Part shown: piece by piece, positions 6,574-64,000 of the stretch | How positions within the stretch are numbered: position 1 is the stretch's first letter | How the letters are laid out: every line of letters starts with the position of its first letter | DNA from: an uncultured virus (IMG/VR IMGVR_UViG_3300042446_001322) | Taxonomy: Duplodnaviria; Heunggongvirae; Uroviricota; Caudoviricetes | IMG/VR virus record: IMGVR_UViG_3300042446_001322 | Reading direction: 5' to 3' (one strand) | Length of the DNA: 64,000 bases | The notes under the pieces: generated by a model | What the model saw: the letters and a program-made list of their open reading frames with translations, nothing else | Databases searched by the model: none | Told to the model about the DNA's origin: nothing | Program-made: the position numbers and the translations under genes

Positions 6574-6629
6574 ATATTTGTATATCTAGAATCTTTTACG
6601 TATATTATTATATATAAAATCAAATTATT

Positions 6630-18583: not shown

Positions 18584-18859
18584 ATGAGTAAAGAAAACCA
18601 ACATCAAGAAGAAGTAGAATTAACAGCAGAAGAATTAGCAGAAAGAAAGGCTGATATGCTTAAATTTTACACAGAATCAATTCCTTATTTAACAGCACAA
18701 CTAGAGTATGAGAAAGTACTATGTGATATTGATGAGGCTAGATTCAAAAGAACAAGTATTAACTATCAACTTGCAATGATGATGAATCCACCTACTGAAG
18801 GTGAAGATGATCTAGATGCACCAAAACCAGAACAAGAAAGAAAACTTAAAACTCAATAG
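18584..18859 (+). CDS. Hypothetical acidic helical protein
   Basis: First gene of the packaging/head operon. Confidence 0.65.
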   Translation: MSKENQHQEEVELTAEELAERKADMLKFYTESIPYLTAQLEYEKVLCDIDEARFKRTSINYQLAMMMNPPTEGEDDLDAPKPEQERKLKTQ

Positions 18860-18865
18860 GAACTT

Positions 18866-19228
18866 ATGGCATTAGTAAATCAAGTACAGAAACGTGCTGT
18901 AATGCCAAAATGGGAAATTGTTAAGTTTCAGATATTATCTCACTGCTATATTAATCATATAGTGGTGAGTGATTCTGACTTAAACTGTTTAACATTGTTG
19001 AGCATGTCAGGACCTATTGAATTAACTCATTTTTGTTATGATGCTTCTTCTGAAGAACAGATGATATTTAAGTCACCACAAACAGTTAGAAATGCAGTTA
19101 ATAAAGCAATGAAAACAATGTTAGTAATTAAAGATGATGTAGATAAAAAACTCATTAGATTAAATCCTACCTTGCAAGTACAAACAGAAGGAGATATATT
19201 ATTAGATTATAAATTTTTAGGAAGATGA
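18866..19228 (+). CDS. Putative winged-HTH DNA-binding protein
   Basis: VSDSDLNCLTLL...SPQTVRNAVNKAMKTMLVIK...IRLNP resembles a wHTH recognition helix plus wing. Confidence 0.5.
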   Translation: MALVNQVQKRAVMPKWEIVKFQILSHCYINHIVVSDSDLNCLTLLSMSGPIELTHFCYDASSEEQMIFKSPQTVRNAVNKAMKTMLVIKDDVDKKLIRLNPTLQVQTEGDILLDYKFLGR

Positions 19229-26532: not shown

Positions 26533-26572
26533 TAAATTTTAGAAGTTTATTTGCATTAAAATAACTATATTA
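26533..26572 (+). promoter_or_regulatory. Operator-like TAAAT-N7-GTTTA (26533-26549) and TATATTA box (26566-26572)
   Basis: taaattttagaagttta upstream of the scaffold gene. Confidence 0.5.
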
Positions 26573-26597
26573 TTTATAGTAACATAAAAACCAACAT

Positions 26598-27854
26598 ATG
26601 AATACTGAAGAACAAGCAACACAAGAAAGCACTACCGTATCACAAGTAGATGTAAACTTGGATGAATTATTTGGAATGCCTGGAGCAGAAAACGTGATGC
26701 TACCAGAAGAAGAAGAAGAGGAAAAGAAATCTCTTTTTACTAAGGATAAAAAAACTGATTATGAGTTCCTTGACAGTAAAACTGGTGTAACAAGTAAACC
26801 AGATACAGCAGAGCAAACTATTACTAAGGAAGAAGTCCAAGAAACTATTGATGAGTTAGATGGACTTATTGCTCAGGAAGAAGATGCAGGTAACAAAGGA
26901 AGACCAAAGATAGATAAGTCAGGTCTTCATGAGTTAGCAGCTAAGATGATAGAAGAGGGTACTCTATTTGGATTTGATGATGATAAAGATTTAGAAGATT
27001 ATACTACTAAAGACTTTAGAGAGTTATTTGAAGCCAACTTTCAAGAGAAAGAAAGAAAGATTAAAGAGGCAGCTCCTAAAGATTTCTTTAATGCATTACC
27101 TGATGAATTGAAAACTGCAGCTAAGTATGTAGCAGATGGTGGACAAGATCTTAAAGGTTTATTCAGAACTCTTGCTCAAGTAGAAGAAGTATTTGAACTT
27201 GATGCAGATGATGAGAATCATCAAGCAGAAATTGCAAGACAATATCTTTATGCTACTAATTTTGGTACACCAGAAGAAATAGAGTCAGAGATTGAAGACT
27301 GGGCAGATGTAGATAAGTTAGGACAAAAAGCTAGACAGTTTAAACCTAAGTTAGATAGAATGCAAGAAGAGATTGTATCTAGAAAACTTGCTGAACAGGA
27401 AAACAAAAAAGAACAACAAGTACAAGCTGCTAAAGTATATACAGATAATGTATATAACGTATTATCAGTAGGTGAATTAGATGGTGTTAAACTAGATAAG
27501 AAAGTACAAAACATGTTATACAGTGGATTAGTTCAACCAGCTTATCCTTCTATATCAGGTAAACCTACTAACTTACTTGGACACTTATTAGAAAAGTATC
27601 AGTTTGTAGAACCAAGACATGATCTTATTGCTGAAGCTCTTTGGCTATTAGCAGATCCAGAAGGGTATAAAAATAAGATTAAAGATCAAGGTACTAAGAT
27701 TGCTACTGAAAAAACTGTAAGAATGTTAAAGACTGAAGAAGGTAAAAAAATTGCTTCATCTATTCCACATGAAGAGAGAGCACAGACTAGAAAAACAGGA
27801 TCAAACAACACAGTCTCAAGAACAGGTGGTAACAACATGTTTAAAAGATTTTAA
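26598..27854 (+). CDS. Putative capsid scaffolding protein
   Basis: Highly acidic and helical; lies between portal and capsid genes. Confidence 0.65.
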   Translation: MNTEEQATQESTTVSQVDVNLDELFGMPGAENVMLPEEEEEEKKSLFTKDKKTDYEFLDSKTGVTSKPDTAEQTITKEEVQETIDELDGLIAQEEDAGNKGRPKIDKSGLHELAAKMIEEGTLFGFDDDKDLEDYTTKDFRELFEANFQEKERKIKEAAPKDFFNALPDELKTAAKYVADGGQDLKGLFRTLAQVEEVFELDADDENHQAEIARQYLYATNFGTPEEIESEIEDWADVDKLGQKARQFKPKLDRMQEEIVSRKLAEQENKKEQQVQAAKVYTDNVYNVLSVGELDGVKLDKKVQNMLYSGLVQPAYPSISGKPTNLLGHLLEKYQFVEPRHDLIAEALWLLADPEGYKNKIKDQGTKIATEKTVRMLKTEEGKKIASSIPHEERAQTRKTGSNNTVSRTGGNNMFKRF

Positions 27855-27889: not shown

Positions 27890-29506
27890 ATGGCAACTCC
27901 AGTATTAAATAATGGGATTTTCTTGCGTGATACGGCATACAATGCTAGTTCACATGTAGATTCTTACCATTTACAAAACATGCTAAAAGATGCAGAACCA
28001 ATGGATTTAGGTCCGGTAGACTTATGGGCTATGGCTCAAAAAGTTGAAATGCCTTTATACCAGTTATCTTCTTTTGGTGGAAAAAATGTTATCAATGTAG
28101 ATAACGCACGTGGTGAGTATAAATGGCAAACTCCAGTATCAATTGATCTTCCTTACATTGTTGAAGACATTGAGCCAGCAAATTCAGCAAAAGGTATTGA
28201 AGGTACTACTTTCAAGATCAAGTTGAACAAGCGTGAATTTGGACATGGTGATATCATCACTTATGACAAATACAACGGTTGTGAGATGTACATTACTGCT
28301 GAAGACATTTTACCAATTGGTGATGGTTTTATCTATACTGTACAGTTAGTTAACAATGATAACTACAAGTACATTGATAATGCTTATTTAGCTAATGGTA
28401 CTAAAGTATTCCGTAAAGGTTCTGCTAGAGGTGAGTATGGTGAGAGATTCTCAGACATCCAAACTAACACAGGATTCCGTGAGTACTACAACTTTGTTGG
28501 TGGTGCTGAAGCTCACGTTCATTACTCTATCTCTTCTAGAGCAGATTTAATGATCAAAGGTGGTATGAATGCAGATGGTACAGTTCCTGTAACTGAAATC
28601 TGGAGATCTCACTTGAAAGGTTTAGATCCATCTATTTCATCTTTGGATGATATGGTTAAAGTAATGGGTAAAGACTCAGTTAAAAAAGCATTTGACAATG
28701 GTGATTTATCAAGAACTTTCTTGACAAACATGGAAGCTGCTCACTTAACTAAGATTGCATCTGATATTGAGACTTACCTTATGTGGGGACACGGGGGTAG
28801 AGTACGTCAAGACGGACCAGATGATGTAAGATTATCTGTAGGTTTGTGGAAACAGTTAGACAACTCTTTCAAAAGAATTTATAACAAAAATAACTTTAAC
28901 TTGGATTTATTCAGAGGTGAGTTATATAACTTCTTTAATGGTAAAGTTGAATTTCAAGGACCAGATCCTAAACGTCAACTTGTTGTTCAAACAGGTATGG
29001 GTGGTATGCGTATGGTTAATGAAGCAATTAAACAAGAAGCTATTTCTTCAGGTTTATTGATTCAAGCTGCTGATATTGGTGCTATCACTGGTAAAGGTAT
29101 GGACTTAAACTTTGGATTTGCTTACACTTCTTACGTTATTCCATTCTTGGCTAATGTTAAGTTTGTATTGAATCCTGCATTTGATAATGTTCATACTAAT
29201 GATATTGAGAATCCTATTATTGATGGTTTCCCATTATCTTCTTATTCATTCATTATCTTTGATATCACAGATAACACTAATGACAACATTTACATGTTGA
29301 AATTATCTTGGGATAATCAATTGAAATGGTGGTACCAAAATGGTACAATGGATTACATGGGTAGATCTCAAGGATTCCAGTCTTCTGGACAATTCAACGG
29401 ATACCGTGTAATGATGTCTCAAACAATGCCAGCTATTTGGGTTAAAGATCCAACTAAAGTATTGAAAATTGTTATGAGAAATCCAATCACAGGTGGATCA
29501 TTCTAA
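27890..29506 (+). CDS. Major capsid protein
   Basis: 538 aa; position; EYKWQ, VVQTGMGGM, VKFVLNPAFD, IWVKDP motifs like crAss-like MCPs; C-ending codon bias suggests high expression. Confidence 0.88.
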   Translation: MATPVLNNGIFLRDTAYNASSHVDSYHLQNMLKDAEPMDLGPVDLWAMAQKVEMPLYQLSSFGGKNVINVDNARGEYKWQTPVSIDLPYIVEDIEPANSAKGIEGTTFKIKLNKREFGHGDIITYDKYNGCEMYITAEDILPIGDGFIYTVQLVNNDNYKYIDNAYLANGTKVFRKGSARGEYGERFSDIQTNTGFREYYNFVGGAEAHVHYSISSRADLMIKGGMNADGTVPVTEIWRSHLKGLDPSISSLDDMVKVMGKDSVKKAFDNGDLSRTFLTNMEAAHLTKIASDIETYLMWGHGGRVRQDGPDDVRLSVGLWKQLDNSFKRIYNKNNFNLDLFRGELYNFFNGKVEFQGPDPKRQLVVQTGMGGMRMVNEAIKQEAISSGLLIQAADIGAITGKGMDLNFGFAYTSYVIPFLANVKFVLNPAFDNVHTNDIENPIIDGFPLSSYSFIIFDITDNTNDNIYMLKLSWDNQLKWWYQNGTMDYMGRSQGFQSSGQFNGYRVMMSQTMPAIWVKDPTKVLKIVMRNPITGGSF

Positions 29507-29556: not shown

Positions 29557-29596
29557 ATTATATTTACAATTATAAACATTTTAAAACCAACACAAA

Positions 29597-30607
29597 ATGG
29601 ATTTTACACACGTAGAAGTATTAAACGTTAACAAGAGTAATAAGATCTCTGTTAAACCTTATTTTGACAACTCAATGTCAAACATGGGATTAGAACATTA
29701 TGGCCAATCATTATTTGATGGTGTTAAACATTATGAGCAATTAGCTTGCTTAGAACAAAATGGAGTAGTAAGATATGTAACAGGATTAAATGAATTTGCT
29801 CCTGAGATTAAATTATTACCAGCAGATGAAAGAATTGCAAAAGTTAGAGAGATCAGAATTGCAGTAGCTGAATTAGAAAAAGAATTAGCAGCTAATGTAG
29901 TAGATATTGATAGCCCAACATTCTGGAATGATATCAAGTTACTTAACCCAAGTAATAAAGAATTTTGGAATAAAATAAATATGTCATGTGGTAATGATCC
30001 AGTATATCTAGATCCTGCTAATCCATATGATAGAATTAAACTATATGCTGTTGAAGCTGGAGGATTTTCTCTTATATCAAGAAGTTATGATGATGCTAGA
30101 TCAAAAGCAGTTCCACCAAAATTTTATTTAGATAAAGTTACAGAAACTAGTGGAATTAAAACTGAATACAAAAAACTTAAAAATAAAGCACTTGCTGAAT
30201 TACAAAAACTATTTGATAAAAATAGTACTAAATTATTCTACATTGCTAAATCTGTTGATACTGCAAGTATACAGTATAAAAAACATACACCTAATGATGT
30301 TATCTATGACAACATGGATAGACATATTAATGGTGAAGGTACAGAAGGAAACAAAGAAAGAGCTGCAAAAGGTTTCTTAGAAGCTGCTGCTTTAGATATG
30401 GAAACATTAAAAATTAAAGCAATTGTCAAAGATTCCATATTTTTTAAGTATATTATTAATAAGTCAGATGGACACATCTATCATACTAAGTCAAATAGTT
30501 TACTTGGTAGAAATGTTGCTGATGTAACTGAGTTCTTAAAAAACCCTTTAAATGAGGATATACTAAAGGATTTAAATGCACAAGTTGAAAAACTGTGGAA
30601 TATGTAA
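29597..30607 (+). CDS. Conserved crAss-like protein downstream of MCP
   Basis: Synteny; LDPANPYD and LGRNVADVTEFLKNPLNEDI motifs. Confidence 0.6.
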   Translation: MDFTHVEVLNVNKSNKISVKPYFDNSMSNMGLEHYGQSLFDGVKHYEQLACLEQNGVVRYVTGLNEFAPEIKLLPADERIAKVREIRIAVAELEKELAANVVDIDSPTFWNDIKLLNPSNKEFWNKINMSCGNDPVYLDPANPYDRIKLYAVEAGGFSLISRSYDDARSKAVPPKFYLDKVTETSGIKTEYKKLKNKALAELQKLFDKNSTKLFYIAKSVDTASIQYKKHTPNDVIYDNMDRHINGEGTEGNKERAAKGFLEAAALDMETLKIKAIVKDSIFFKYIINKSDGHIYHTKSNSLLGRNVADVTEFLKNPLNEDILKDLNAQVEKLWNM

Positions 30608-30659: not shown

Positions 30660-30830
30660 ATGGCTAACGCAAAAGTAAATGTACAACAAAGAGCAACAGG
30701 CAGAGTAGGTGGAACCAATTCTCCAGTGTATGCATTAAAAACTCCAGGTGGAAAAACTCCAGGAAAAGTAAACAAACCACAGCCATCTCCTAAGATGAAA
30801 ATGGGAGGTACCAAAGGTAAAAAGTGTTAA
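30660..30830 (+). CDS. Small basic protein, 56 aa, KMKMGG motif (not in ORF track)
   Basis: MANAKVNVQQRATGRVGG...PKMKMGGTKGKKC*. Confidence 0.65.
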   Translation: MANAKVNVQQRATGRVGGTNSPVYALKTPGGKTPGKVNKPQPSPKMKMGGTKGKKC

Positions 30831-30850
30831 TAATATTAAAATAAATTATT

Positions 30851-31480
30851 ATGGCAAAGATAGGATGTGCTAAATGTGGAGGCACTAAAAAAATGGCATT
30901 AGGAGGATCTGCAGTAAAAAAAGCTCCAGTACAATTATATGGTATACCTCAAGAAAATATGGGGACTTCTTCTCAAATGGGATTTGGTAGAAAAGGCGGA
31001 TCAGTAAATATAAATAAAAAAACAAATGACATGACTAAAGTTAAAAAAATGCAAGTAGGTGGAATGAGTACAACTCCTAAAATGAGTACAACTCCTAAAA
31101 AACCTGTAGTTAAAAAAACAGTTGTACAAAAGAAAACAACAGTTCCAAGAAAAATAATTGACAGTTATATTCCAATGGGTGGTCCTGATAGATTACTGAA
31201 AAAACCAACAATGGCTAAGAAAGGTGGAACAGTAAATAAAATGCAAGCTGGTGGAACAAGTTCTACAAAAACAAATATGTTTGGTAAAACTAAAAATGTT
31301 TCTGAAAAAGAAGCTATGGAAAAAGTTACAAAATATGCTAATAAACCTGGCAGTACAGTAAAAAGTACAACAAATGGTACTGAAAAAACATATGTAACAA
31401 AACCTAGAGCAAATTCTAACAGATCTGTAACAACTACATTTAAAAAAATGGGTGGAGTTACTAAATCTAAAAAGAAATAG
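30851..31480 (+). CDS. Lys-rich protein with repeated MxxGG motifs
   Basis: KMALGG, GRKGG, KMQVGG, MAKKGG, KMQAGG, KKMGG. Confidence 0.7.
   Translation: MAKIGCAKCGGTKKMALGGSAVKKAPVQLYGIPQENMGTSSQMGFGRKGGSVNINKKTNDMTKVKKMQVGGMSTTPKMSTTPKKPVVKKTVVQKKTTVPRKIIDSYIPMGGPDRLLKKPTMAKKGGTVNKMQAGGTSSTKTNMFGKTKNVSEKEAMEKVTKYANKPGSTVKSTTNGTEKTYVTKPRANSNRSVTTTFKKMGGVTKSKKK
31063..31098 (+). repeat. Perfect 18-nt tandem duplication
   Basis: aatgagtacaactcctaa x2 (MSTTPK x2). Confidence 0.9.
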
Positions 31481-31482
31481 TC

Positions 31483-31860
31483 ATGGCTAATACTAATAGA
31501 GCAGTTAAGACTTCTTGCAAAAATACTAAAGTAAGAACTGCTTCTGGTGCATGTGCTCCTGAAAGAAAACCTATGATGAAATCTGGTGGAACTAGTCCAT
31601 TTGGTATTTTATCTATTATAGCGGGTATAGATAATAATCCTAAACCAACTGCTGCTGATAGAATTTCTGGAGCTAAAATGAAAAATAAAAAAATGGCCAA
31701 AGGAGGTACTGCTCATCCAGGTTTTAAATCAGTACAATCTAGTATTGCTGCTAAACAAGGAATTAGTAAACAAGCTGCTGGAGCTATATTAGCTGCATCA
31801 ACTAGAAAAGCTAGTGCTAAAGCTAAAGCTGCAAATCCTAGACTTAAAAAAGTAAAATAA
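31483..31860 (+). CDS. Basic protein with MKSGG/MAKGG motifs
   Basis: C-terminal HPGFKSVQ...AGAILAASTRKAS...NPRLKKVK module. Confidence 0.7.
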   Translation: MANTNRAVKTSCKNTKVRTASGACAPERKPMMKSGGTSPFGILSIIAGIDNNPKPTAADRISGAKMKNKKMAKGGTAHPGFKSVQSSIAAKQGISKQAAGAILAASTRKASAKAKAANPRLKKVK

Positions 31861-31865
31861 TTGTT

Positions 31866-32204
31866 ATGCCAAAAGATGCATGTTATTCTAAAGTAAAAGC
31901 ACAGTATGCTGTGTTTCCTTCAGCAAGAGCTTCTCAAGCTATTGCTAAATGTAGGAAAGGTTCTGGTGTTGTTAAAAAAACAAAAGCTGGGACAGACTTA
32001 AAAAGATGGCAAGCAGAAAAGTGGCAAGATACAAAATCAGGAAAAGCTTGTGGGGCTGGTGGTAAAAATGAATACTGCCGGCCAACCAAGAAAGTATCTA
32101 AGGATACACCTAAAACTAAGTATGAACTTACTCCTTCTAAACTAGCTGCAAAGAAAGCTGAAAAGTCTAAAGTAGGTATGGGTAGAAGAGTTAAAAATGT
32201 ATAG
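31866..32204 (+). CDS. Basic Cys-containing protein (DUF5872-like)
   Basis: LKRWQAEKWQD...CG...YCRP...TPKT. Confidence 0.6.
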   Translation: MPKDACYSKVKAQYAVFPSARASQAIAKCRKGSGVVKKTKAGTDLKRWQAEKWQDTKSGKACGAGGKNEYCRPTKKVSKDTPKTKYELTPSKLAAKKAEKSKVGMGRRVKNV

Positions 32205-32206
32205 TC

Positions 32207-32716
32207 ATGGCAAATAAAGTTAAACTTACTATAGGTACTGAAAAGCATGTAGTATATAAAAAGACTACTAAAAGAGGTGAAGGTAAAGTTGGTGATATTA
32301 TGGTGAATCATACAAATAAAAATAAAGGTTCATATGATACTATTAGCTTAACTAGAACTGCTAAAGCTAAAACTGTTGCTCAAGGTGTTAAAGCTGAAAA
32401 GGATTGGCACAAAAAGAATGATAAAATGCCCAAAATGAAAAGTGGAGGTAGTACTCCTGCTTGGACACGTAAGGAAGGTAAAAATCAAACAGGTGGTTTA
32501 AATGCTAAAGGAGTAGCAAGTTATAGAGCTGCTAATCCTGGAAGTAAACTTAAGATGGCTGTTACTACTAAACCTTCTAAGTTAGATCCTGATAGTAAAG
32601 ATGCTAAGAGACGCAAGAGCTTCTGTAGTAGAATGTCAGGGATGCCAGGTCCTGCTAAAAAACCAAATGGAGAACCAACAAGAAAAACTCTTGCTTTGAG
32701 AAAGTGGAATTGTTAA
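32207..32716 (+). CDS. Basic protein with C-terminal DUF6321-like domain
   Basis: After KMKSGG: AWTRKEGKN..GGLNAKG...RRKSFCSRM...LRKWNC. Confidence 0.65.
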   Translation: MANKVKLTIGTEKHVVYKKTTKRGEGKVGDIMVNHTNKNKGSYDTISLTRTAKAKTVAQGVKAEKDWHKKNDKMPKMKSGGSTPAWTRKEGKNQTGGLNAKGVASYRAANPGSKLKMAVTTKPSKLDPDSKDAKRRKSFCSRMSGMPGPAKKPNGEPTRKTLALRKWNC

Positions 32717-32728
32717 AATTTATATATT

Positions 32729-33406
32729 ATGAAAAAAATGCAAACAGGTGGTGCAAAAAAAACAGTTAAAAAAGTTGATGATAAAACATCATTTAAAGCT
32801 GGATTTAAAACTACTCCAATACCTCAAGCTTATAAAGCAGTTGGTAAAATGGCAAAGAATGTTGATGATGCAATTGAAAAAAGATATCCTAATTATACAG
32901 GTCCAACATCTTTTTATGCTGGACTTAAATCTGGAGCAAAAACTTTACTTGGATATAAAAAAGGTGGAGTAACTAAAGAACATCCAATAACTGCATTTAG
33001 AAAAGCTAATGAAGCTAGAGATGTAGTAGTTAAATCTTCTATGAAAAAAATGCAGACTGGCGGTGTTAAAATAAAAGAATCTAGTAAAGATGCTTATTAT
33101 AAAAATAATACTCAAAATTTTAAAGAATATAAAGCTACAACAGATGGTACTGTAAAAAGTACAAGAAAAACTTTTCCTGATGTTTCATCAAAACCTGCTA
33201 TGGAAACTACACAATCTATGGATACTACAGGATATGCAAAAGGTAAAAAGTCTTTTAAGTTAACAAACTCATCTGTAGATTTAATTGATAAAAAAGTATA
33301 TGGTGCTAAACCAAAAGTAACTGTAAAAAATATATCTAGAAATGATGTTAAAAAAGTTATTGGTGGTATGAAAAGCAATATTGGTAATGCTTCTAAAAAA
33401 AAATAA
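32729..33406 (+). CDS. Lys-rich protein with KMQTGG repeats
   Basis: MKKMQTGG twice, YKKGG once. Confidence 0.7.
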   Translation: MKKMQTGGAKKTVKKVDDKTSFKAGFKTTPIPQAYKAVGKMAKNVDDAIEKRYPNYTGPTSFYAGLKSGAKTLLGYKKGGVTKEHPITAFRKANEARDVVVKSSMKKMQTGGVKIKESSKDAYYKNNTQNFKEYKATTDGTVKSTRKTFPDVSSKPAMETTQSMDTTGYAKGKKSFKLTNSSVDLIDKKVYGAKPKVTVKNISRNDVKKVIGGMKSNIGNASKKK

Positions 33407-34617: not shown

Positions 34618-34680
34618 TTTTGTAAATAGAAATTATTTTATTATATTATATATATATTTATTAATTAAAATTAAATTATT

Positions 34681-36612: not shown

Positions 36613-36631
36613 ACCATTAAAAACCAACAAG

Positions 36632-36769
36632 ATGGCAAAATGTTCAAACTGCAGTAGAAATTTATCATGTGGCTGTCAAAAAAGAGTTGCATCAAATAAA
36701 GCACAGGTATGTACAAACTGTATTTCAGCTTATGAAATGAAGCTTAAGCAATTACAACCAAAAAAATAA
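36632..36769 (+). CDS. 45-aa Cys-rich protein (not in ORF track)
   Basis: MAKCSNCSRNLSCGCQKRVASNKAQVCTNC...; AAACCAACAA leader. Confidence 0.65.
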   Translation: MAKCSNCSRNLSCGCQKRVASNKAQVCTNCISAYEMKLKQLQPKK

Positions 36770-38372: not shown

Positions 38373-39818
38373 ATGAAACCATTAAATTTTGATAATTCAC
38401 CATGTAGTCCAACTTCTTCAAATTGTGTAATTTGGGCAGGTCCGGATTTAAAGTGTATAAACTTATGTAGAGGAGATTCTATTACTGATGTAGTTGAAAA
38501 ACTTGCAACTGAGTTATGTGCAATTTTAGATACATTAAATATTAATTCTTATGATCTTGATTGTTTTAATTTAGTAAATTGTGCACCAAGTACTTTTACT
38601 GACTTGATTAATTTCTTAATACTTAAAGTATGTGAACTTGAAAATATTCCAGTTACTCCTGATGTACCTCCTTCAAATGGATGTCCTACAGATTGTATAG
38701 TATCAATAGCACCATGTTTTGTAAATGGTACTACAACTACAATGAATCTTACTGAGTATGTAATTGCTATTGGTGAAAAAATATGTGCAATTATTGATGT
38801 TAATGCATTACAAGATATAGCAATTGCTGATCTAGATGTAAGAGTAACTGATTTAGAAAATACATCACCTCCATCATATACTACACCTACTTTTACATTG
38901 GGTTGTACTATAGATACATTACCTAGTGGTAGTACACAAGCAATAGATCTTATATTACAAGTATTTATAAATGATATATGGTGTACTTATGTTAGTACAA
39001 CAGGTGATGCTGGATTATTAGCAACTGCAATTGCAAATCAAACTGTTGCATCTACTGATCTTTCAATAGCAAATCCTCTTGCACAGATGTCTGTACAATA
39101 TGCAGTATTATGGTCAACACAATTACCAACACCTACTGTTGCTGGTACAATTAATAATATTTGGGCATGTATTGAAGATTTAAGAAATGGAAAAACAACT
39201 CTTACTGCTTTAGATACTGCAACAATCAATATGACAGTAACAGGAGGGCCAGCTTATGTAGTTAGTGCAGATGTAATTCCTTCAGCTCCATCAGTTGCAG
39301 ATACAGCAACTGTAAACTTATCAGTTGGTGCAGGTCCAACATATACATTAACAGCTGATACAATAGTACCAGGTGCAATGTTTGCACAAATACAACCACC
39401 AAGTTTAACACTTGTTGTACCAGATTTAACAACTAGTTTAATTGATGGTACTACAATACTTTTAACAGAAATATATGATGATGATAATGCATATAATGCT
39501 TTAACAGGTTTGTGGACTTGTCCAGCAACAGGAATATATAATTTTAGTTTTTATGTACATTTATCAGAAGGACTTGTTGGTTTTACATCAGGTAGTATTG
39601 TAGCTGGTATTACAAGTAGTACAGGTTCAATATATCATGTAGCTTCTACATGTGGAATTACTAATCAATCATTATATGTTGATCTTAATGGAACTATGTT
39701 AGGATTAGAAATGAATATAGGTACTCAAGTATGTCTCAGAGTAGTTAATTTTTCTAATGTAAATTATACAACATCTAGTGGTGACATTGCAAAAATGACA
39801 ATACAAAAAGTTAAATAA
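38373..39818 (+). CDS. Fibre protein with C-terminal C1q/TNF-like domain
   Basis: SSNCVIWxGP N-terminus, coiled coil, YNALTGLWTCPATGIYNFSF C1q-like motif. Confidence 0.65.
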   Translation: MKPLNFDNSPCSPTSSNCVIWAGPDLKCINLCRGDSITDVVEKLATELCAILDTLNINSYDLDCFNLVNCAPSTFTDLINFLILKVCELENIPVTPDVPPSNGCPTDCIVSIAPCFVNGTTTTMNLTEYVIAIGEKICAIIDVNALQDIAIADLDVRVTDLENTSPPSYTTPTFTLGCTIDTLPSGSTQAIDLILQVFINDIWCTYVSTTGDAGLLATAIANQTVASTDLSIANPLAQMSVQYAVLWSTQLPTPTVAGTINNIWACIEDLRNGKTTLTALDTATINMTVTGGPAYVVSADVIPSAPSVADTATVNLSVGAGPTYTLTADTIVPGAMFAQIQPPSLTLVVPDLTTSLIDGTTILLTEIYDDDNAYNALTGLWTCPATGIYNFSFYVHLSEGLVGFTSGSIVAGITSSTGSIYHVASTCGITNQSLYVDLNGTMLGLEMNIGTQVCLRVVNFSNVNYTTSSGDIAKMTIQKVK

Positions 39819-39828
39819 ATAAAATACT

Positions 39829-42129
39829 ATGAATACATGTATAAAATGCGGATGTGATGATGCTTATCCTTCTTTACCTCCATGTCCAACTCCAATAGAT
39901 TGTCCTAATCCACAACCATGTGCAGAATTTTTTGATGCGCAATGTGTAAGATATACATTACCAGATATTATGTGTGGACTAAATATTGTTGTTGCACAAG
40001 ATTCTTCAATTGCTGAGGCATTAGAAAGTATTGTATTGTTTTTTTGTACAAATTTTTCAAATAGTGTACAATCAGTAACGGGTTTAAATACAGACAATAC
40101 TGATCCACTTAATCCTATAGTTAAAGTTTCTGTAGATGGAATTACAATTACAGGTTTGGGTACACCAGCAAGTCCACTTATTGCTGTAGCAGGAGGTGTT
40201 GATGGTTCAGGAACACTCAATTATCTAGCAAAATGGACACCAGACGGAAATACATTAGGTAATAGTTTAATAAGAGATGATGGAACAACTATTGGAATTG
40301 GAATAGCACCTTCTTCTAATGCACTTTTGTATGTTAGCAATGCCTCAAACAATGTAGCTGTTAGAATAGAACAATTATTAAATGCAACTACTACAACAAA
40401 TGGAGCTTATATTACTAACACTGGTATTAATACTGGAGAAAACAGAGGTTTAGAAATAAGTGTTAATAATTCAAGTTTAATAAATACTGGACTTTTAACG
40501 GTAGTTACAGCAAATGCTCCTGCAACTGGTGTTGGTGGCCAATTTATAGTAACAGGTACTTCATTAAGTAAATATGCTTTACGATTACAGGATGGAACTG
40601 AAGGGTCAGGTAAGTTTTTAAAATCAATTACAGCAAATGGAGAAGCAAACTGGGCTAACATTACAGCAGCAGATGTTTCTGGAGTTGTAGGTGGATCTGG
40701 TACAGTTGATTATCTTGCTCGTTGGACACCAAGTGGTACTCAATTAGGTATAGGATTAATACGAGATGATGGAACTACAGTAGGTATAAATACAGCACCT
40801 GTGAGTACAATTCAGCTACAAGTGCTTTCTTCTAAAACAAATGCGGTAGTAGGGATAACAAATAAAGCCACTGGAAATAATGTTGGTGTTTATGGAGAAG
40901 CCAACGGTGTTGGGGCTGGACAAAATAGTGGAGTCAGAGCTCTTGCTTCAGGAGGTACTGTTGTAAATATTGGTGTTTACGGAGAAGCAAATGGTGCATC
41001 AGTTTCTGGGTATGGTGGTTCTTTTTATGCAATTAATGCAACAAGCACTAATATAGGTGTTATAGCTAGTGCAGGTGGAGGAACAACTGCTATTGGAGGT
41101 CAATTTAGTACAAGTGGAGCTGGTTCAAATTATTCACTAAAACTTTTAGATGGTAGTGAAGGTGTTGGAAAAGTATTGACTTGTATGACTGCAACTGGAG
41201 AAGCTAATTGGGTAACTCCTAGTGGAGGAGGAGTTTCAGGTTCTGGTATAAATAATTATGTAGCACGTTGGACTCCAGATGGTGCAACTTTAGGAACTGG
41301 TTTAATTAGAGATGATAATACTAGTGTTGGAATTGGTGCATCTCCTACAGCAAACTATAGATTACGTATTGAGACATCTACACAATTATATGGTATGTAT
41401 GCTAAAACAAGTTTAGCAGGTACAGGTAATCAAGTTGGTGTAGCTGGTTTTTCAGATGGTTTAAGTACGGGAGGTCAAAATGCAGGTGTTGTAGGATTAG
41501 CGTCAGGAAATACAAATATAAATATAGGAGGTAGTTTTTCTGCGCTTTCAGCAACTGTAGGTACAAATATAGGTGTTTATGCGCAAGTCCAATTTGGTGC
41601 TAATAATTATGCTGCTCAGTTAAGAGATGGAACAGAAGTTGTTGGAAGAGTTTTAACATGTATGACTGCTACTGGAGAAGCTAATTGGGCTACATTACCT
41701 ACTATAGGGGGATTAACTTGGACTACCCTATCAGGAACTAACCCTTCAGCAACACTTGCAGCTAATAATGGATATCTTATTAAAAATACTACAGGTGCAT
41801 TTACATCTGTAACTCTTCCTTCATCAGGAGTAGTTGTAGGAGATATTATAAAAATCATTGCTACCGATGGTGGTGGTGGTTCTTTATCAACATGGAGAAT
41901 TTTAGAAGGTAGCGCAACAGATGTTATAATTTACTCTTTTTATGATATAACTACTGATTCTGAAATTACAGGTGTAAAAAATACTTCACCATTATTAACT
42001 TTTGATGATAATGTAGCAGGATCATATACAATGTTTAGAAATCAATCTTTAACATTAACTTGTGTGGAAGTTTTAGGAGCAGGGTATGCTTGGAATGTAG
42101 AATTAGCAAATGGTAAAATGATTAGTTAA
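39829..42129 (+). CDS. Long tail fibre with three internal repeats
   Basis: GSGxxxYxAxWTPxGxxLG...LIRDD and DGxE..G..L...TA.GEANW each occur three times. Confidence 0.7.
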   Translation: MNTCIKCGCDDAYPSLPPCPTPIDCPNPQPCAEFFDAQCVRYTLPDIMCGLNIVVAQDSSIAEALESIVLFFCTNFSNSVQSVTGLNTDNTDPLNPIVKVSVDGITITGLGTPASPLIAVAGGVDGSGTLNYLAKWTPDGNTLGNSLIRDDGTTIGIGIAPSSNALLYVSNASNNVAVRIEQLLNATTTTNGAYITNTGINTGENRGLEISVNNSSLINTGLLTVVTANAPATGVGGQFIVTGTSLSKYALRLQDGTEGSGKFLKSITANGEANWANITAADVSGVVGGSGTVDYLARWTPSGTQLGIGLIRDDGTTVGINTAPVSTIQLQVLSSKTNAVVGITNKATGNNVGVYGEANGVGAGQNSGVRALASGGTVVNIGVYGEANGASVSGYGGSFYAINATSTNIGVIASAGGGTTAIGGQFSTSGAGSNYSLKLLDGSEGVGKVLTCMTATGEANWVTPSGGGVSGSGINNYVARWTPDGATLGTGLIRDDNTSVGIGASPTANYRLRIETSTQLYGMYAKTSLAGTGNQVGVAGFSDGLSTGGQNAGVVGLASGNTNINIGGSFSALSATVGTNIGVYAQVQFGANNYAAQLRDGTEVVGRVLTCMTATGEANWATLPTIGGLTWTTLSGTNPSATLAANNGYLIKNTTGAFTSVTLPSSGVVVGDIIKIIATDGGGGSLSTWRILEGSATDVIIYSFYDITTDSEITGVKNTSPLLTFDDNVAGSYTMFRNQSLTLTCVEVLGAGYAWNVELANGKMIS

Positions 42130-42140
42130 TTTAAAAATAT

Positions 42141-42210
42141 GTCGCAGTTTGTTGGTTTCTGTGGCTAACAACGAGACCCCGGTATGTATTTTATTACCGG
42201 GGTTATTTTT
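42141..42210 (+). ncRNA. Structured 3'-UTR element / candidate antisense sRNA
   Basis: Stem gtcgcag/ctgtggc with loop tttgttggttt, complementary to AAACCAACA leaders; followed by a terminator. Confidence 0.45.
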
Positions 42211-42211
42211 T
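42176..42211 (+). terminator. Intrinsic terminator
   Basis: accccggta...taccggggt plus tatttttt. Confidence 0.8.
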
Positions 42212-42292
42212 ATATATGAGTTATATATATTATATTTGTTTAACTTGTAATTTTTATAAGTCTGAAAAATTTAGTATATTAATGTATAAGGT

Positions 42293-42883
42293 ATGGAAAG
42301 TAAAATATTTAAGGGACCAGATGTAAAAGGTAAAAGATTTAGACAAGATGTATATCATGTATTAAATAGACAATTCTATAAAGCATTTAAAGAAAAGTAT
42401 CCTAAATATAAGGATGTAAGTACTAAGGACCTATATAAAATATGTACAACATTCCATAACTTATTTTTTGAAACAGTAATTGAAACTAGGGATGGTGTAA
42501 AGTTACCAGAAAATTTAGGTAACATATTTATTGGTACATGTCAAACAAGTAAGTTTAGAAGAAACATTGATTTTGGCAAGTCAACAAAATATGGAGTAAT
42601 AGTAACAAATACAAATTGGGATACAGATGGCAAGCTTGCTAAAATCTTTTATACTAATAATGCTACTAAGTATACTTTTAGTAATAGAGAGTGTTGGGCT
42701 TTTGCAGGATGTAGAAACTTTAAAAGAAGTGTAGCTAAAACATATTCAGAAAATTGGCCTATGTATATACAGGTTGATCCAATGAAAAAAATACGTAAAA
42801 TGTTTACTAAGTCTAGGCAAAAGGATTACGTTAAAAGTATTGAAAAAGAAAAGTTAAAAACATATAATGAATTTGATATATGA
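42293..42883 (+). CDS. HU/IHF-like protein (crAss-like tail-region gene)
   Basis: Basic; DGVKLPENLGNIFI; synteny before the ring genes. Confidence 0.55.
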   Translation: MESKIFKGPDVKGKRFRQDVYHVLNRQFYKAFKEKYPKYKDVSTKDLYKICTTFHNLFFETVIETRDGVKLPENLGNIFIGTCQTSKFRRNIDFGKSTKYGVIVTNTNWDTDGKLAKIFYTNNATKYTFSNRECWAFAGCRNFKRSVAKTYSENWPMYIQVDPMKKIRKMFTKSRQKDYVKSIEKEKLKTYNEFDI

Positions 42884-61191: not shown

Positions 61192-64000
61192 TGGAAAATA
61201 CTTTTAGCCCTTTAGATCCACTTGGACCAGAATTTGGTAAAGTTCAAGGACCTGCAATTAATGCACAAAGTTTATCTCCATTTGAAGGTGATGTATTAAA
61301 AGAAAATAAAATTGATTTTTTTCCTATTGCACATGATTTTAGTATTGCTGCACATCCTAAATATCCTGTACAAGATGTTGTAACTGGGCGTAGTCCAAAT
61401 AGACCAGGTTATCAAAATCCAAATAAAAATCTTACAGCACAACAACGTGCAGATGCATGGGCAGCTGATAGTGAGATGATGATCAGATCACATAATGATA
61501 AAAATACATATGCAAAAATGAATATGTATAATGCTGGTCCATCTGGTAATTCATTTTATAAAAGATATGCAGCTTTTGGTGAGAAAAAATTTAATGAATT
61601 AGGTTTTTCTCCAATGAGAGATAATGAAGCAATATATAATGCTAATACAACTTGGGGAGAAAGAGCATCAAGAATGATGAAAAATTCATTTTTACCTTTA
61701 CTAGGTAGAGGATTTGTATCTGGTCCAAAGAGTTTATTTAAAATGATGCAAGGTGATTTTAGTTCTGATCTTGAAGATGCAAGAGCATATGAAGAAGCTG
61801 CAGCTATAGGTCAAGATACATCAGGAGGTTTTGGAGCATTCTTTACTAATACTTCAATGAGTTTTGCATATACTGCGGGTATTATTGGTGAAGCAATTGT
61901 TGAAGAAGTTGCAGGTGCTTTACTTGCTCCTGTTACTTTTGGTGGTTCTTTTTTTGCTGCTACTGCTAACAATTTAAGAAAAGTTGGTAAACTTGGTGAT
62001 GCTGTTGATTTAGCTGTTGATGGATATAGAGCTGTTAATACTACACTTAAAGAAGCAAATAGTATCAATGGTGCTAGAAAAATGTGGAAAGGAGCAGAAA
62101 CTTTTGGCAATAATAAACTTGTTAAATTTTTAAATCCACTTGAAAATACATATAGTGCAGTTATGGGCATTGGTAAAAATGCAGATAACTTAACAGGTCT
62201 TGCAAGATTATCACGTGAAACTAGTAAAACAGCAGGTGGTTTATTCAGAGATGTAAGAAATATTAATATGGCATTATCAGAAGCCCGTCTAGAAGGTGGT
62301 ATGAATGATAATAAAGTATATGATGAATTATATGATGAATACTACAGAAAGAATGAAAGAGCTCCAAGTGATGAAGAGCAATATGAAATGACTAAAACTG
62401 CAAAAGCATCTGGTATAAATACATTGATGTGGAATACTGCATTAATATTTGCATCAAATAAAATTGTACTTCCTAACTTAATGAAATCCGGTGCAGGTAA
62501 AAATGCAATTGGTAATAAGTTAGATGATGTATTAACCATGAAAGATGGTAAAGTTGTACTTGAAAAAAAATTTGATGCAGGTAAAAAAATTGCAAAAGGT
62601 GAATTTACATATGTTGCTAATTCATTTAAAAACTCACTTAAAGGATTTAAAGCTGCTCCAATTAGAACTACTGCTAAAGTAGCTGGAACATATCTAAAAG
62701 GTAATTTACTTGAAGGTGTTCAAGAAAACTTACAAGATGTTATATCAGTAGCTAATGAAGAATACTATATTAATTCATATAAGAATAAAGAATTAGGTGC
62801 TCACTTATATAATAAATCACAAAGTTCATTAATGCTAGATGGATTAAAAAATCAATTCTCATCACAGGGATTTGAAACATTTGCTTCAGGTGCATTAATG
62901 GGTTTATTTTCTGGTGGATTAAACTTAATTAAAGGAGGTTTAGATGCAGGTTATAATAATATATTTAATAAAGAAGAATATAATACATATAAAGCAGAAA
63001 GAAAAACACATGGTGAAAATGTAGCAAAACAATTAACTGCATTGTATAATGACCCTAATGAATTCTTTGACCCAAAGTTATTTAATTATGGTAATCAAAA
63101 TAATGTTGTAGCAAATACAGAAGATGCAGATACTAAAGATAAAAAAGATGATTTGCGTGATGCATTCATGAGTCAAGTATGGACATCATTAAGTTCTAAT
63201 ACACTTAATTATTTTAAAGATCATATCTCTTCATTTAAAGATGTAACACCAGAAGAGTTTGAAGATGCATTTGGATTTGAAAAAGGTACTGGTATTGAAA
63301 GACAAGGTAAAATTGATACTATTATATCTAAGATAGATGATGTTAAAAAAACATATGATTATGCAAGTGATAGATTTCCTAATCCAATTGACTTAAGTAA
63401 ATATGATAAAGCTTTACCTGAATATAGAGAAGCAGCATTACTTAGTAGAGCTTGGAATGAAGGGGTAAGGCAATATGTTTTTTCAAACCATAAATATATG
63501 GACAATGTTGATAGAATGGTAAGTATTTCTGGTACCATTCTAGATAATCCATCTATGAAAAAGATGTCTCAAACAGACATGCAAATGATACTTCAACCTT
63601 CAAAAATAAATGATGAAGTACAATTACTTAAATCAGAAATAGAAGGGCTTAGTCAATTAACTGATTCTAAGTCTAAAGCAGAATTATTAAAAAAACAAAA
63701 TAAAGTAACAGCTTTAGAAGAATATGCATCTGCACATAATATGCATGAAGCATACTATAACAGTTCTACAAGAGATCAGTTTATTAATGATTTATTTGAA
63801 GAAGTAAAAAAACAACAAGGTGTTGCAGAATTAACAGAAGATGATAAAAAACAAATACTTGAGATTCAAGAAAATGCAGTTGATAATGATTTAGAATTAG
63901 CATATAAAAACTTTTTAAAAGTTGCAAATGGCATTGATTCATCTTATATATTTGATACTGATGTTGATGAAAGTTTTAGTAAGCTTAAAGATCATTATAA
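61191..64000 (+). CDS. Giant virion protein, 5' part only (by synteny possibly the virion RNA polymerase-containing protein); not in ORF track
   Basis: ATG 61191 overlaps the previous TAA; frame appears open to the window end; Gly/Ala-rich hydrophobic helices; no DxDxD polymerase motif seen in this part. Confidence 0.7.
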   Translation, partial: MENTFSPLDPLGPEFGKVQGPAINAQSLSPFEGDVLKENKIDFFPIAHDFSIAAHPKYPVQDVVTGRSPNRPGYQNPNKNLTAQQRADAWAADSEMMIRSHNDKNTYAKMNMYNAGPSGNSFYKRYAAFGEKKFNELGFSPMRDNEAIYNANTTWGERASRMMKNSFLPLLGRGFVSGPKSLFKMMQGDFSSDLEDARAYEEAAAIGQDTSGGFGAFFTNTSMSFAYTAGIIGEAIVEEVAGALLAPVTFGGSFFAATANNLRKVGKLGDAVDLAVDGYRAVNTTLKEANSINGARKMWKGAETFGNNKLVKFLNPLENTYSAVMGIGKNADNLTGLARLSRETSKTAGGLFRDVRNINMALSEARLEGGMNDNKVYDELYDEYYRKNERAPSDEEQYEMTKTAKASGINTLMWNTALIFASNKIVLPNLMKSGAGKNAIGNKLDDVLTMKDGKVVLEKKFDAGKKIAKGEFTYVANSFKNSLKGFKAAPIRTTAKVAGTYLKGNLLEGVQENLQDVISVANEEYYINSYKNKELGAHLYNKSQSSLMLDGLKNQFSSQGFETFASGALMGLFSGGLNLIKGGLDAGYNNIFNKEEYNTYKAERKTHGENVAKQLTALYNDPNEFFDPKLFNYGNQNNVVANTEDADTKDKKDDLRDAFMSQVWTSLSSNTLNYFKDHISSFKDVTPEEFEDAFGFEKGTGIERQGKIDTIISKIDDVKKTYDYASDRFPNPIDLSKYDKALPEYREAALLSRAWNEGVRQYVFSNHKYMDNVDRMVSISGTILDNPSMKKMSQTDMQMILQPSKINDEVQLLKSEIEGLSQLTDSKSKAELLKKQNKVTALEEYASAHNMHEAYYNSSTRDQFINDLFEEVKKQQGVAELTEDDKKQILEIQENAVDNDLELAYKNFLKVANGIDSSYIFDTDVDESFSKLKDHY

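Follow-up and report, generated by a model that had tools for sequence, protein, structure and literature searches.

A conserved hairpin behind the probable tail fibre gene of crAss-like phages, complementary to boxes at late-gene starts: a candidate antisense RNA

The late region and the element in a 3' untranslated region

The window analysed here, a stretch of 64,000 nucleotides from an uncultured virus (IMG/VR record IMGVR_UViG_3300042446_001322), comprises the late region of a crAss-like phage. Genes for terminase (21523), portal (23734) and capsid (27890, PF23898) are present, and two ring genes (42880 and 43551) and a muzzle gene (44580) complete the crAss-type late gene set. Crass-type family matches were obtained to PF23898, PF25702, PF24228 and PF25731, and the portal and terminase were assigned by PHROG; these capsid, portal, terminase, ring and muzzle genes, together with the portal tree, place the window among the crAss-like phages. 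In that tree the window shares a branch (99/98) with G009, G013, G014, G016, G018, G019, G021, Lbo-JY46, phi17:2 and csAssE-Sib, and crAss001, phi14:2, Fpv1 and p-crAssphage lie outside it. The relatives of the window are IMG/VR contigs with 41-100% identity, and the GC content of the genome is about 31%. Two GTDB contigs with the element described below and crAss-like genes sit in Chitinophagaceae bins, a weak hint of a Bacteroidota host. The recorded host of Lbo-JY46 (PP438436.1, L277) is a cyanobacterium, yet this phage groups with Bacteroidota crAss-like phages and its starts are A-rich and without Shine-Dalgarno sequences, so that the host assignment on record may need checking.

The element lies between the stop codon and the intrinsic terminator of the mRNA of a 766-aa protein, which is probably the tail fibre, as judged from its position and variable C-terminus; a PHROG search with this protein gave no match. 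The hairpin begins 11 nt past the stop codon in the window, and in phi4:1, G030 and G033 its stem starts at the stop codon itself. Its stem, two G-U pairs included, is where an earlier sequence-only reading of the window had placed it (Table 1), and the terminator noted in that reading is also found (structure z -3.8); it is absent from the listing of a terminator scan because its 10-nt loop exceeds the limit of 8 set by the tool. The U tract is the predicted 3' end of the RNA. Past the terminator lies a TAnnTTTG sequence, which we take to be a Bacteroidota -7 element and which probably drives the ring and muzzle genes. A second motif, a T-rich stretch plus TATATT(A/T), recurs 15-30 nt upstream of many late genes in the window and its relatives and is a candidate late promoter. 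Elsewhere in the window, small Lys/Gly-rich genes with repeated KKGG motifs are clustered at 30660-33406 and vary greatly in length among relatives, and an uninterrupted reading frame at 61192-64000, after the stop of the 58204 gene, leaves the window end in a region of large virion-cargo-type genes.

Table 1. Positions of the element, the boxes and neighbouring features in the window
Feature	Position	Strand	Remarks
Target box	18595..18603	+	codons 4-7 of gene 18584-18859; 34/36
Target box	26588..26596	+	before scaffold-position gene 26598-27854; kept 44/44
Major capsid gene, internal control	27890..29506	+	directly 3' of scaffold-position gene; PF23898; never boxed
Target box	29584..29592	+	before post-capsid gene 29597-30607; 44/44, as many as 3 in tandem
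Box before internal ATG 31211	31202..31210	+	in 1/16 homologues; treated as chance
Target box	36621..36629	+	before 45-aa Cys-rich gene 36632-36769; kept 14/14
Upstream gene	39829..42129	+	766 aa; element lies in its 3' UTR
Seed hairpin	42141..42165	+	7-bp stem (two G-U pairs), 11-nt U-rich loop 42148-42158
Intrinsic terminator	42175..42211	+	10-bp stem 42175-42184/42195-42204, U tract to 42211
TAnnTTTG promoter-like element	42231..42238	+	past terminator; similar motif in relatives
TATATT(A/T) motif, examples	1880-1900, 6610-6625, 26560-26580, 34640-34660, 42270-42285		intergenic

Rfam covariance models, c4 included, gave no match to the element. The only Rfam hit in the window was a sub-threshold sR14 (18772-18833, E 0.015) inside gene 18584, which is probably due to chance. 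One RNA run (X1; contigs, 10% of words), of a kind unable to show RNA ends, had zero cover at 41850-42483, and the contigs of relatives, at low depth, point in neither direction.

Conservation and distribution of the hairpin

The hairpin with its terminator was found in all 22 relatives picked by the neighbouring downstream protein; at 21 of these loci it directly precedes the downstream gene, and at the remaining one it lies about 0.9 kb upstream. The end of the upstream gene differs even among near-identical phages, and conservation begins abruptly at the stem. Such variation of the coding sequence argues against an internal promoter; it does not mark an RNA end. Over 32 aligned sequences the 7-bp stem is 94% paired and three of its seven pairs show two-sided change, counts which the relatedness of these sequences inflates; this combination was reached by none of 500 shuffles, and slid controls gave 21-62%. 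RNAalifold on the MAFFT alignments A4 and A5 picked pairings between invariant columns and not the stem, and the named stem was counted and tabulated instead. The terminator follows the hairpin in the relatives too, with compensatory changes in six pairs of alignment A5. A 416-aa gene stands after the terminator in the group of L243 and L273 (G013, G014), and its copy in G013 has the box core in the first codons.

Across groups, 39 different stem-loop variants with unrelated stems were collected, in which the loop core UGGUUU is constant while the stem changes completely yet remains paired. The hairpins score 15.9 with their own flanks vs 5.0 with flanks exchanged between groups, and the plus strand gives the better fold in 55 of 70 variants. 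Among the 120 matches listed in a pattern scan of viral contigs, 62 passed the stem-and-terminator filter; these loci are uninformative on the invariance of the loop because they were chosen by it. In genomes selected by protein, the loops vary around the fixed UGGUUU core. This comparison shows the hairpin to be conserved as an RNA structure of the plus strand: the core is kept, the stem is compensated and in 66 of 70 variants the seed is mostly open; loop conservation had been proposed as a check.

The sequence-only reading had further suggested that the loop could pair with a downstream segment and hide the seed, so that the element might switch. Such a fold is present in the window (-26.2 vs -26.1 kcal/mol for the open form), where the seed is only about 45% unpaired. 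Because the seed is mostly open in the variants and the alternative pairing is rare in relatives, a conserved switch is rejected, and any switch would be local to the window. An attenuator or riboswitch was also considered and discarded, as we found no conserved fold that excludes the terminator, and both folds of the window element keep it.

The element occurs in 10 of the 11 members of the portal-tree branch of the window, the exception being csAssE-Sib; six of the ten carriers were found via the loop itself, which played no part in finding the window, G009, Lbo-JY46 and phi17:2. The late regions of csAssE-Sib, crAss001, phi14:2, Fpv1 and p-crAssphage contain neither hairpin nor box. In csAssE-Sib, a gut phage, a diversity-generating retroelement is annotated at the tail-fibre gene (L284, 30752-32817). 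Among 16 genomes chosen by capsid protein the ring gene was located in nine: all seven epsilon-like genomes outside the gut group carry the element, and the other two, of the csAssE-like group, have neither element nor boxes. Four additional genomes gave two clear elements, one loop sequence with an unclear stem and one genome without the region. An automatic scan picked up 19 of 21 carriers, G021 and G023 being recognised by eye only, with six stray hits, and found none in 240 kb from seven non-carriers. The 7-mer box stood at 71 of 1206 starts of the 21 carriers, where shuffling gives 18, and at 0 of 188 starts of five non-carriers, where it gives 1.3. In the late regions of these five annotated crAss-like phages hairpin and box are jointly absent. 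Together they reach phages at only 21-28% capsid identity, two cultured phages of Cellulophaga, phi17:2 and phi4:1, among them, and the carriers make up a large group of aquatic crAss-like phages. Single distant capsid proteins used as queries returned only the same phage or a near twin. When GTDB was scanned for a cellular version, three of the 120 matches listed passed the stem filter, two on crAss-like contigs and one on a contig without phage genes.

Boxes at the starts of late genes

The complement of the loop, AAACCAACA, precedes the ATGs at 26598, 29597 and 36632 by 1, 4 and 2 nt, respectively. Another copy occupies codons 4-7 of gene 18584 and one more stands ahead of the in-frame ATG at 31211; all these sites had been listed in the sequence-only reading. 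Seven matches to AAACCAACA occur in the window on both strands vs 1.28 expected, a number reached by none of 100 shuffles; one of the seven is the loop itself and one, at 39575, absent from that earlier list, lies within a gene in opposite orientation and looks like chance. The site at 31211 did not survive comparison with homologues (Table 1). When the 61 starts of the window are ranked by the energy of their duplex with the loop, the four other start-site genes take the first four places, with -10.5 to -12.1 kcal/mol; the next start has -7.7, a gap of 2.8 kcal/mol.

Enrichment at particular starts, which had been proposed as a check, was clear in homologues. AACCAAC is present at all 44 distinct post-capsid starts (80 loci around the post-capsid gene) and at 39 of 46 scaffold-position starts, where six of the others have an A-to-G change opposite U and one lacks the last C; it is present in none of 37 capsid rows, although the capsid leaders are A/C-rich. 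A relaxed box at 102 loci marked 44/44 scaffold-position, 44/44 post-capsid and 14/14 Cys-rich starts. In 20 other families the count was 2 of 306 starts, and for capsid it was 0/32. The last box mostly ends 3-8 nt upstream of the ATG, a Shine-Dalgarno-like spacing, and reversed boxes were seen at none of 622 starts. Next to the box core, the position opposite U is A in 143 and G in 5 of 148 cases, the Gs coming from few lineages, and the position opposite G is C in 122, U in 15 and A in 10.

In gene 18584 the two homologues without the box have mis-called starts. Asn-Gln in these target sites is coded AAC-CAA in 29 of 30 cases vs 8 of 70 in the reading frames of the window, and five homologues without the coding box have a box in the leader. 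The box is kept by synonymous codon choice, and it relocates between coding region and leader. The following gene, 18866-19228, was considered as a regular target and rejected, as only 3 of 35 close homologues are boxed; boxes were noticed in G005, where its homologue has one, and in G013 and G016, where genes of similar size in that region have them. The 120-aa product of 18866 has 1231 homologues. Family searches returned nothing for it, and its resemblance to winged-helix proteins is weak (no match at E 0.001); it is a candidate late transcription regulator. Five Bacteroidota genomes (3.7-5.6 Mb) contain only 17-29 box-ATG matches apiece; therefore, the box is no general start motif of the host.

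Co-variation of loop and leaders, which the sequence-only reading had proposed as a check, was observed in part. In phi17:2, phi4:1, G029 and G033 the first G of the loop is U and the last C of the post-capsid box is A, and these variant loops and boxes give 10-13 contiguous pairs. When own-lineage pairing was compared with permuted pairing in 13 lineages, which are not independent and five of which were found via the loop pattern itself, p was 0.008 for post-capsid, 0.046 for scaffold and 0.27 for capsid. In five other lineages (G014, G018, G026, G028 and G030) the box pairs through the core only, and the 5' extension of the loop is mismatched; the invariant loop core is just 6 nt. The core is missing at the post-capsid gene in G023, G043 and G044, at the scaffold gene in G021 and at both in Lbo-JY46. 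Mean duplex energies over 15 genomes were -9.4 (scaffold), -5.7 (capsid), -9.8 (post-capsid) and -5.0 kcal/mol (next gene).

The targets had been taken for structural genes. They are indeed late genes boxed at their starts, but their products look like non-virion proteins. We infer from its position between portal and capsid that the 26598 gene encodes the scaffold. In the model of the 29597 product (pLDDT 83) a small SAP-like helical domain is followed by one that resembles the RecA C-terminal domain (Z 10, rmsd 1.8 over 62 residues), and crAss001 gp33, at the equivalent position, is annotated as double-stranded DNA binding; the post-capsid protein is a probable DNA-binding protein of gp33 type. 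In phi17:2 the scaffold-position and post-capsid genes are 'hypothetical' amid virion-protein neighbours, and in phi14:2 they are without the mass-spectrometry note that their neighbours have, annotations that fit non-virion roles. The 18584 product has 91 aa, and its gene heads the cluster leading to the terminase. Family searches gave no hit for it or for the Cys-rich gene, and the four targets together yield just one weak PHROG of unknown function.

Possible function and known systems

The central proposal, that the loop pairs with start regions of late genes, held in every proposed comparative test that could be run. Since the loop is complementary to tags at these starts, it probably dampens their translation by base-pairing, and we think it probable that the element is a phage antisense RNA, derived from the 3'-terminal part of the tail transcript, which represses translation of non-virion late proteins. 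We infer in this the existence of the RNA, its pairing in vivo, the repression and the purpose. Late transcription would end at the terminator, and mRNA decay or cleavage would then yield a stable fragment of some 70 nt that both hairpins cap; alternatively, the 3' end might act while still part of the transcript. The exposed U-rich loop would pair over 6-13 bp with AAACCA(AC) boxes, in a stretch that begins about 12 nt upstream of the start codon and reaches 20 nt downstream of it, and block loading of the 30S subunit on the A-rich, Shine-Dalgarno-less starts of a Bacteroidota host. Bacteroidota starts are described as A-rich, without Shine-Dalgarno sequences and dependent on upstream adenines (PMC6847099). 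The targets would be late proteins needed in small amounts or briefly, namely the scaffold, the probable gp33-type DNA-binding protein and two small proteins, and the adjacent capsid gene would escape repression; the circuit would thereby set stoichiometry and give a delayed shut-off. Start-codon pairing by GibS in Bacteroides, which have no obvious Hfq or ProQ (PMC7366714), is a precedent for such repression.

One alternative, in our view fairly unlikely, is that the pairing is real and its outcome is another: it may stabilise the target mRNAs or promote their translation, or the boxed mRNAs may act on the hairpin, either titrating it or altering the stability or termination of the tail transcript. 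All of the pairing evidence fits this equally well, the spacing of the last box would suit it, and the tandem boxes before the post-capsid gene could be a sponge. However, the box can also lie within codons 2-7 and has switched sides of the start codon among homologues, which fits occlusion, and there is no conserved loop-terminator fold and a promoter-like element stands after the terminator. It seems quite improbable that the loop is a trans-acting guide, whose pairing at Shine-Dalgarno-like spacing would turn selected late genes on after the tail transcript is made. The phage would then provide both the box and the RNA complementary to it, in a host whose ribosomes ignore Shine-Dalgarno sequences; our literature search found no phage RNA acting as such a translation guide.

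An explanation not requiring pairing, which we consider unlikely, is that a protein binds the box, either in DNA, at an operator just past late promoters, or in RNA, as a translational repressor (the gp33-type protein, for example). The hairpin would then contain this double-stranded site in inverted orientation or be bound by a different ligand, and the complementarity would be incidental. The boxes do lie shortly downstream of promoter-like motifs, the RecA C-terminal-like fold of the post-capsid protein and the weak winged-helix resemblance of the 18866 product offer candidates, and the mismatched loop extension in five lineages is consistent with it. A DNA site, however, needs no compensated stem with G-U pairs on one strand, and the lack of reversed boxes, the wobble-biased substitutions and the joint change of loop and box in three lineages also speak for pairing. 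It is very improbable that the hairpin serves only in RNA stability or processing, or as part of a double terminator, with the box a generic A/C-rich feature of Bacteroidota starts. Although the low GC content of the genome and the A-rich starts described for Bacteroidota would favour this, the box specificity data argue strongly against it: the capsid leaders are equally A/C-rich and never boxed, the starts of non-carriers lack the box, matches in Bacteroidota genomes are few, and synonymous bias and site turnover were observed.

We found no description of this element in a literature search and Rfam. Four supplementary files of Fremin 2023 (PMC10690425) gave no hit, and the motif may be among the 10,000 candidates of that study. 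Phage base-pairing RNAs so far concern mostly lysogeny, exclusion or host genes, according to the available text of a review in which neither 'crass' nor 'capsid' occurs (PMC12197685), and a review of Crassvirales (PMC10136315) nowhere mentions small or non-coding RNA. If the reading is true, a self-targeting multi-gene RNA circuit has been kept across phages that share just a quarter of capsid sequence, an extra layer is added to the timing and balance of virion assembly in crAss-like phages, and RNA would act on Shine-Dalgarno-less starts, probably without Hfq. The comparison flags four uncharacterised genes as co-regulated, and the circuit is testable now because the cultured phi17:2 and phi4:1 carry a variant of it.

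Bacterial small RNAs derived from 3' UTRs are known, of the CpxQ, SroC and DapZ type, and the element would function like one of these. It resembles them in using the intrinsic terminator of an mRNA, in its short seed and in having several unlinked start-codon targets. The c4 antisense RNA of P1 and P7 acts in lysogeny control via icd/ant, folds into several stems and is represented by an Rfam model; in c4, as in the CI RNA of P4, an exposed phage RNA loop pairs in trans with short repeated mRNA boxes, as proposed here, whereas our element has a single seed loop, its four late targets are unlinked and it lies in a 3' UTR. Unlike the CpxQ type, the element is phage-encoded, would target the late genes of its own genome and has a hairpin loop as seed, and Bacteroides are without obvious Hfq and ProQ (PMC7366714). 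The same study describes GibS of Bacteroides thetaiotaomicron, a Bacteroidota RNA that also represses by pairing with translation initiation regions; it differs in being chromosomal, with its own promoter, a length of about 145 nt, a long single-stranded 5' seed and metabolic targets. SviR of the PLE satellite (bioRxiv 10.1101/2022.04.08.487710) is likewise a conserved small RNA that lowers translation of lytic-phage genes, a putative structural one included, but there a satellite acts against its helper phage, and here the phage would regulate itself. The autoregulated scaffolding protein of P22, which is recycled and translationally kept at a lower level than coat protein, offers a parallel in purpose, although there a protein, not an RNA, acts, and on a single gene (bioRxiv 10.1101/2022.12.13.520362).
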